A stretch of 64,000 nucleotides of DNA, from assembly GCF_054482525.1 (NCBI RefSeq), contig NZ_CM137006.1, one strand, 5' to 3'. Made by a program: the position numbers and the translations under genes. This document shows positions 31,041 to 31,090 of this stretch, one piece after another. Below the pieces are notes generated by a model that was given only the letters and a program-made list of their open reading frames with translations, had not been told where the DNA came from and made no database searches. How positions within the stretch are numbered: the stretch's first letter is position 1; each line of letters opens with the position of its first letter.

Positions 31041-31090
31041 TGACTTCATATTGTGATGTCATACTATTGATGTCATAAAGTGAAGTCATA
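31041..31090 (+). promoter_or_regulatory. Four tandem TGAnnTCATA repeats overlapping the putative promoter of the toxin-antitoxin operon
   Basis: TGACTTCATA (31041), TGATGTCATA (31054), TGATGTCATA (31068), TGAAGTCATA (31081) at 13-14 bp periodicity; a TTGACT -35-like hexamer at 31040-31045. Confidence 0.45.

Follow-up and report, generated by a model that had tools for sequence, protein, structure and literature searches.

The interval between yhhJ and nikR in the window, by which the whole 64 kb stretch of DNA that was analysed is meant, carries on its + strand a toxin-antitoxin (TA) module, hicA-hicB, in which the toxin gene comes first. The repeats studied here sit between the yhhJ stop codon (31028) and this module, on which nikR converges from the opposite side. 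The segment 30950-31900 is 100% identical to the chromosome of E. coli strain PCN033. One + strand promoter candidate, TTGACT-16-TACTAT, was found in the yhhJ-hicA intergenic region by a consensus scan, its start site being predicted, and no internal promoter within hicAB was predicted by consensus scan. The features of the locus are listed below, with scores in bits that refer to a box weight matrix built solely from loci outside Escherichia.

31040-31045, + strand: -35 hexamer TTGACT from the promoter scan, overlapping box S1
31041-31048, no strand assigned: box S1, TGACTTCA, 16.7 bits, counterpart of the -58/-60 box in other genera
31054-31061, no strand assigned: box S2, TGATGTCA, 12.6 bits, inside the -35/-10 spacer, Escherichia-specific; its unit is missing in 3-box alleles
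31062-31067, + strand: -10 hexamer TACTAT, a consensus match with a 16-bp spacer; TAGTAT or TAAAAT stands at the equivalent place in relatives
31068-31075, no strand assigned: box S3, TGATGTCA, 11.8 bits, abutting the -10, counterpart of the -32/-33 box
31081-31088, no strand assigned: box S4, TGAAGTCA, 15.7 bits, reverse complement of S1, counterpart of the -19/-20 box
31090-31094, + strand: Shine-Dalgarno AAGGA, 6 nt before the hicA ATG, its GGA kept in the conserved footprint
31101-31376, + strand: hicA, 91 aa, Pfam HicA_toxin (3.7e-9), RefSeq HicA family toxin
31373-31732, + strand: hicB, 119 aa, Pfam HicB (2e-15), RefSeq HicB family antitoxin, with a 4-nt overlap (ATGA) with hicA

An earlier note on this DNA had described four TGAnnTCATA motifs with inverted half-sites, spaced by 13-14 bp across 31041-31090. 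Direct reading and pattern search confirmed them as TGACTTCATA at 31041-31050, TGATGTCATA at 31054-31063 and again at 31068-31077, and TGAAGTCATA at 31081-31090, with start-to-start spacings of 13, 14 and 13 bp. A two-strand search of the 64 kb window found TGANNTCATA four times in total, each time within 31041-31090. In shuffled windows a mean of 1.57 matches was obtained, scattered window-wide; the densest 60 bp in 300 first-order Markov simulations held 2 matches, a cluster of 4 did not arise, and the analytic chance of a four-match cluster is about 7e-10. A repeat finder also reported a higher-order pattern of two 24-nt direct repeats, 31040-31063 and 31067-31090, whose starts are 27 bp apart. 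The repeats and their inverted half-sites thus stood, but not the 10-mer as their unit: the trailing 'TA' is local to Escherichia and is not kept in other genera, and the conserved unit is an 8-bp core, TGACNTCA / TGANGTCA, a pseudo-palindrome TGAC(T/G/A)TCA whose ideal form joins the half-sites TGAC and GTCA. A further reading, in which the array forms a single large inverted repeat, or cruciform (arms 31041-31061 and 31068-31088, 76% complementary), was rejected because the complementarity is a trivial result of pseudo-palindromic boxes and because other genera space their pairs by 26-27 bp.

The positions of TTGACT and TACTAT place S1 on the -35, S2 in the spacer, S3 right after the -10 and S4 in the short leader, so the boxes span the predicted promoter from the -35 through the spacer and the -10 edge to about +15. 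S3 should cover the predicted transcription start. The motifs do precede the start codon, as had been claimed, but TTGACT is not separate from them, since at 31040-31045 it overlaps the first one. The suggestion of a TA promoter agrees with the downstream genes, which Pfam assigns to a HicA toxin and a HicB antitoxin, and with the repeats covering the predicted promoter.

HicB orthologs at 60-85% identity are found across Enterobacterales, and a genome scan returned 49 loci, which belong to about 24 genera and whose genomic surroundings are unrelated. For enrichment, the 120 nt before hicA were scored in 38 non-Escherichia orthologous loci (about 24 genera, unrelated flanks). The core reaches 22.8 per kb before hicA, and about 125 kb of flanking DNA contain it at 0.088 per kb, an enrichment of about 260-fold. 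Two to four strict boxes were present upstream of hicA in 33 of these 38 loci; the other five, all from Pantoea, have one strict box and a degenerate box 13 bp away. The spacing across the 38 loci is always 13 bp within a pair and 26-27 bp between pairs. The 'helical-repeat-plus' periodicity proposed earlier gives way to this rule, in which 13 bp is a constant of loci with 8-bp boxes.

In most genera the boxes lie at about -71, -58, -32 and -19 from the hicA ATG. The -58 box together with the preceding T forms the -35 hexamer TTGAC(T/G), a coincidence observed in nearly all orthologous loci, and the first T of the -32 box is also the last base of a TATAAT-like -10. When 31 distinct loci were anchored on the -32 box, the information content amounted to 1.85 bits per position for the -32/-33 box itself (the S3 counterpart and the most conserved position), 1.38 for the other proximal box, 1.11 for the -10 and 0.21 for the promoter spacer. 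Some genera commonly have the perfect palindrome TGACGTCA, and a box may lie in either orientation, both of which fit a two-fold symmetric reader.

The matrix built outside Escherichia places S1 to S4 in the top five sites of the 64 kb window. The fifth is a lone perfect TGACGTCA at 53312-53319 (12.0 bits) without a second box 13 bp away; chance alone would produce about one such 8-mer in 64 kb. In E. coli, S1 (-60), S3 (-33) and S4 (-20) are the -58, -32 and -19 boxes of other genera. The -71 box is missing because the yhhJ stop codon occupies that place, and an extra box, S2, is found at -47 inside the spacer; outside Escherichia, S2 has only one weak counterpart, in Citrobacter sedlakii. 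The E. coli array can therefore be described as two adjacent 21-bp two-box units, S1+S2 and S3+S4, with boxes exactly 13 bp apart within each unit. Photorhabdus is a second lineage in which the promoter spacer is filled by extra boxes, with five box-like sites at -79, -66, -50, -39 and -26 (L012-L014) and an irregular middle spacing (16 and 11 bp).

The HicA domain occupies residues 30-80 of the toxin (Pfam HicA_toxin PF07927, E 3.7e-9), behind a conserved N-terminal extension of about 29 aa. The 91-aa protein is kept from residue 1 in most orthologs, which supports ATG 31101 as the start. Residue conservation, taken from the alignment as displayed, includes a G-S-R and H-R-P-H-P...D-K-G-A in residues 48-70 of the subfamily. 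Canonical HicA toxins have their catalytic His within a G-S-H motif; an Arg is found at the position of this His in the subfamily. No relative of HicA was recovered by sequence search of the PDB, so the catalytic mechanism may differ. Neither HicA nor HicB had a match in NCBIfam or PADLOC, the latter being without a model for this module.

The antitoxin combines an N-terminal domain of the Pfam HicB family (PF05534, 2e-15) with weak matches of residues 76-116 to Arc (E 0.022) and CopG_antitoxin (E 0.03). Sequence search of the PDB gave no HicB relative and only a marginal match, between an Arc repressor chain and residues 76-114. The AlphaFold2 model (mean pLDDT 82) displays a beta-sheet and long helix (9-67) and two further helices, 87-99 and 104-118, which come after a less confident extended segment where the monomer model is without a strand (pLDDT 62-69, residues 71-90). 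The top PDB matches in Foldseek were 6G26 (B. pseudomallei HicB), 4P78 (Y. pestis HicB3), 2DSY and 6HPB, with weak E-values of 0.02-1.2 for the matches and probabilities of 0.8-1.0 for these four. TTHA0281 and E. coli K-12 HicB (6HPB) are among the fold matches, and the C-terminal part matches the Arc-operator structure 1PAR. These lines are individually weak and in agreement, and the C-terminal domain of HicB is accordingly predicted to be a ribbon-helix-helix (RHH), in line with the earlier assignment of the 119 aa protein as an RHH antitoxin.

HicB is the sole DNA-binding protein of the hicAB cassette. Its predicted reading strand, K79-T-F-T-L-R-Y85, is essentially invariant among 28 aligned orthologs. 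In the HMMER alignment of HicB 76-114 with Arc 5-43, T80, T82 and R84 stand opposite Arc Q9, N11 and R13, which are the base-contacting residues in the Arc-operator structure, and F81, L83 and Y85 stand opposite the core residues F10, L12 and W14. The xFxLR(Y/W)P stretch of HicB aligns in this way with Q9-F-N-L-R-W-P of Arc, and in Arc/Mnt of phage P22 the RHH beta-ribbon reads the major groove. A HicA domain, a HicB domain, closely linked genes in the order hicA then hicB and an RHH in HicB were all found, and the module fits Gerdes Class 4 hicAB, with toxicity and neutralisation putative; this class was defined by hicA preceding hicB and by an RHH HicB (PMC10865869).

It is highly probable that 31041-31090 is the operator of the hicAB promoter, autoregulatory through HicB and made of two adjacent 21-bp two-box units. 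Box conservation and promoter-locked positions, together with orphan hicB loci, strand-linked boxes and a reverse search that are described below, argue for the operator for an RHH antitoxin that the earlier note had put forward. HicB almost certainly controls its own operon, a control of an ordinary kind that was not previously described for this widespread family and that does not overturn the standard picture of type II TA autoregulation. RHH HicBs bind and repress their own promoters (PMC11594946; PMC6327479; PMC10865869), and in the hicAB systems studied excess toxin destabilises the HicB-DNA complex and does not serve as a classical corepressor (PMC11594946). In the hicAB modules studied so far HicB represses its own operon and excess HicA relieves this repression, so the same is expected here.

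In the proposed mechanism, one HicB RHH dimer would read one 8-bp box by inserting its beta-ribbon in the major groove, T80, T82 and R84 being the candidate reading residues. A HicB tetramer, or two cooperating dimers, would fill one 21-bp two-box unit, the tetramer being suggested by the dimer-of-dimers form of the RHH HicBs from Y. pestis and B. pseudomallei (PMC11594946). With both units filled, HicB would cover the DNA from the -35 to about +15, shut out RNA polymerase and repress hicA-hicB, and excess HicA would, by analogy, loosen HicB from DNA. In Arc, two dimers occupy a 21-bp operator with half-site centres about 11 bp apart on one DNA face, versus 13 bp between HicB boxes. This 13-bp spacing corresponds to a helical offset of about 86 degrees between neighbouring dimers, which makes an Arc-like side-by-side cooperativity unlikely; cooperation between Arc dimers is by direct contact, and in HicB the N-terminal domain probably tethers the dimers. 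A cooperative occupancy set by the toxin:antitoxin ratio is suggested by the invariant 13-bp spacing and by analogy with YpHicB3 and BpsHicB.

Within E. coli, hicAB is present at this site in about 2,060 of 5,426 complete genomes (~38%). Operator substitutions among the alleles examined are found only in spacers (31052 T/C, 31064 C/G) and never in boxes. A 3-box allele results from a 14-bp deletion that removes exactly one unit (S2 or S3 plus the TACTAT -10; window 31054-31067); three boxes then remain, spaced 13/13, and the candidate -10 left to them, TAAAGT, is weaker. This deletion was observed in 9 of 9 genomes sampled from the 80-90% identity band, which contains 788 genomes, or about 38% of carriers. 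In both alleles fetched from this band (L001 435-445; L054), codon 2 of hicA is changed from AGA to TAA, and the PGAP annotation begins this hicA at a CTG and gives a product of 76 aa, WP_042014162.1. The HicB of these alleles is intact and identical to the HicB of a 4-box strain. Three boxes together with the hicA stop may reflect decay of the toxin with retention of the antitoxin/repressor. In Escherichia sp. E1V33, three boxes go along with an intact hicA. The S1-to-S3 distance of 27-28 bp is common to Citrobacter sedlakii, Enterobacter and Klebsiella, in which the middle box is degenerate, and this shared distance points to an ancestral 4-position geometry from which the 3-box form is derived. 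As S2 is restricted to Escherichia and about 38% of hicAB-positive E. coli belong to the 3-box band, four boxes are not essential.

Several loci have hicB without hicA and keep the box array directly upstream of hicB. For instance, the orphan hicB of Buttiauxella gaviniae (L038 1379-1438) has a full 13-26-13 box set, that of Klebsiella pneumoniae, beside nikR (L062 732-800), shows four lattice positions ahead of the ribosome-binding site of hicB, and that of Pluralibacter (L049 1467-1487) has kept one box pair. The Klebsiella locus had been considered as a boxless exception, which was rejected given that hicA is absent and the boxes lie directly before hicB. These loci bear on the possibility that only the HicA-HicB complex binds the boxes, or that the N-terminal extension of HicA contributes to binding, free HicB then not being the repressor. 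The E. coli K-12 HicAB complex does bind DNA better than HicB alone (PMC11594946), and the extension of about 29 aa is conserved. Nevertheless, orphan loci keep the boxes with no hicA at all, and in the 788-genome band the fetched alleles combine boxes and an intact hicB with a stop at codon 2 of hicA, so that a strict need for the complex appears improbable.

Recognition by HicB itself is further indicated by the way in which the boxes follow its reading strand. Salmonella plasmid HicBs (50-53% identity, strand KSFTLRY) are preceded by four perfect TGACGTCA at -75, -62, -33 and -20. In the same way, a second E. coli hicAB at flhA-yafL (HicB 44% identical, KRLTLRV) has TGACACCA, TGACGTCA, TGACACCA and TGACGTCA at -73, -60, -33 and -20, so that homologs with these two strands (44-53% identity) share TGACGTCA-type boxes in a 13/27-29/13 layout. 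An Acinetobacter plasmid and two metagenomic contigs whose strand is G(K/R)FN(L/T)R(I/V) carry (T/C)AGTACCA-N5-T(A/G)GTACTA, 13 bp start to start, the pair of G(K/R)FNxRx homologs being TAGTACCA-N5-T(A/G)GTACTA. In a Ralstonia phage (GKFVLRV) and an Enterobacter plasmid (GKVSTRL) the palindromes are different ones, and TGACNTCA is absent. Wherever there are 8-bp boxes, their pairs are again spaced by 13 bp, while the sequence of the box follows the strand. The box thus appears to track the HicB strand, K(T/S)FTLRY going with TGACGTCA and G(K/R)FNxRx with TAGTACTA, in a sample of about 10 loci from distant HicB classes from which P0122 (a divergent HicB, KTFTFRY) and P0131 (whose contig ends before the promoter) were left out.

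The reverse search started from the boxes. The pair TGACTTCA-N5-TGACTTCA had 42 matches in viral contigs, 39 of which had enough downstream sequence. A hicA in the right orientation begins about 72 nt after the first box in 23 of these 39 evaluable matches, followed by hicB wherever the contig continues, and all evaluable four-box matches (two pairs about 40 bp apart) are linked to hicAB. Two matches outside hicAB (L098 7913-7980 and L070 228-275) are perfect simple tandem repeats of 13 bp that contain TGACTTCA in unrelated genes, and were rejected as HicB operators. One of them has metacaspase-like and exonuclease-like genes next to it, and both match the operator pattern by coincidence. The IMG/VR contigs that carry hicAB with a four-box operator number at least 23 and are mostly of about 33-36 kb and prophage-like (L068, L071, L075-L077, L084, L089, L091 and L101 are among those with hicAB), and related HicBs are found between tail genes in Ralstonia phages. 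This viral carriage fits a mobile, possibly phage-related role of hicAB.

A very unlikely alternative is that the boxes are sites for a global or local host transcription factor, of the MetJ or CRP/FNR type, and not for HicB. MetJ met boxes are tandem contiguous 8-mers AGACGTCT with an 8-bp period, read by RHH dimers that need a corepressor. They are like the HicB boxes in being 8-bp palindromes in multiple copies, and the ideal box TGACGTCA has the central GACGTC in common with their consensus; a lone TGACGTCA also occurs elsewhere in the window, at 53312. However, HicB boxes are 5 bp apart and spaced by 13 bp, not contiguous, so their identification as met boxes was rejected on spacing, and the homology between HicB and MetJ is limited to the RHH fold. 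In addition, the cassette takes its boxes along into chromosomal, plasmid and viral surroundings that are unrelated, and flanking DNA in the orthologous loci is about 260-fold poorer in boxes. The boxes also stay with orphan hicB and change with the HicB strand even in Enterobacteriaceae hosts (L060).

Even more doubtful is that the repeats arose by slippage or duplication of a -35-like sequence with no operator role. This would be in keeping with S2 and S3 being identical 10-mers, with the clean 14-bp unit gained or lost between E. coli alleles, and with the unrelated 13-bp tandem repeats of the same 8-mer in two viral contigs (L098, L070). Yet boxes are kept while spacers diverge, down to a HicB identity of about 60% among genomes and 44-53% on plasmids; their positions are locked to the promoter hexamers; and they tolerate orientation flips and a perfect palindrome, which is what a dimer site should allow. 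The least credible possibility is that the promoter-proximal repeats act in the 5' UTR RNA as HicA cleavage sites or in translational control: HicA toxins are RNases (PMC11594946) and S4 and part of S3 would be transcribed from a start near 31074, but the predicted start lies downstream of S1 and S2 (and of the distal pair in other genera), TGACTTCA or TGAAGTCA can stand at one position, which preserves a double-stranded DNA site and not an RNA sequence, and the pattern requires no stable fold.

The operator proposed for HicB can be compared with those of characterised systems. HicA3-HicB3 of Y. pestis is alike in its hicA-first operon, its RHH tetramer HicB and its two operator units, which flank or overlap one promoter upstream of hicA, the proximal one lying over the -10 (PMC11594946). 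The N-domain of the HicB model matches 4P78, and at the sequence level no match to Y. pestis HicB3 was found by PDB sequence search. In Y. pestis, two 15-bp inverted repeats, BS1 and BS2, flank the promoter and the -10-proximal one is the main operator (PMC11594946). They differ in sequence from the present unit, which consists of two 8-bp boxes 13 bp apart (21 bp), and they flank the promoter whereas the E. coli units are adjacent. The best structural match of the HicB model is B. pseudomallei HicAB (6G26), with 9% identity in the structural alignment. This system also relies on an RHH tetramer, an operator that overlaps the -10 and a release of HicB by excess HicA (PMC11594946), but its HicB has a single palindromic site in contrast to the four-box array, and HicA here has an N-terminal extension. 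In E. coli K-12, HicAB (hicO, promoter P2) belongs to the same species and TA superfamily and is autorepressed by HicB through a palindromic operator (PMC10865869). That HicB is nevertheless a helix-turn-helix protein, encoded at a different locus with two promoters and a HicB-only transcript, and K-12 is devoid of the yhhJ-nikR hicAB module. According to a 2024 review, each characterised HicB recognises a distinct motif (PMC11594946). None of the five characterised systems that it lists belongs to the present subfamily, and no paper on this hicAB module or on the box motif was found in the literature searched.

The present analysis thus defines a candidate operator (four boxes, promoter hexamers and T80/T82/R84) for an experimentally uncharacterised hicAB subfamily that ranges over ~38% of complete E. 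coli genomes, O157:H7 included, about 24 Enterobacterales genera, plasmids and phage-like contigs. The invariant 13-bp pairs and the strand-linked box changes make a compact model in which to examine RHH specificity and to judge how paralogous TA modules might cross-talk. In parallel, the 3-box allele, mostly linked to the hicA nonsense mutation, constitutes a natural experiment on operator copy number and its co-evolution with toxin loss. A broader proposal can be derived tentatively from the same comparisons, as a whole possible rather than probable: HicBs of the PF05534 type would use a fixed 21-bp two-box operator whose box is re-programmed by two to three strand residues, the 14-bp deletion behind the natural 3-box/4-box polymorphism of E. 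coli, which takes away the ancestral -10, would retune or disable autoregulation in a manner coupled to toxin inactivation, and paralogs would cross-regulate each other. If true, K-T/S-F-T-L-R-Y reading TGACGTCA and G-K/R-F-N-x-R-x reading TAGTACTA would amount to a readable and swappable RHH recognition code.

The second E. coli hicAB is exemplified by E. coli TUM18781 (L058, flhA-yafL, about 450-525), where the layout is 13/27/13. Its boxes are near-identical to those described here, and cross-regulation between the two modules is therefore conceivable. Finally, a perfect 15-bp AT-rich inverted repeat, AACTGAACTTAATTT-TAT-AAATTAAGTTCAGTT (31787-31819), followed by a T-run, was observed between the convergent hicB and nikR. 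The segment that holds it (~31744-31853) is absent where hicB precedes an aldolase/HPr cluster (L003), and the inverted repeat is probably a bidirectional terminator.
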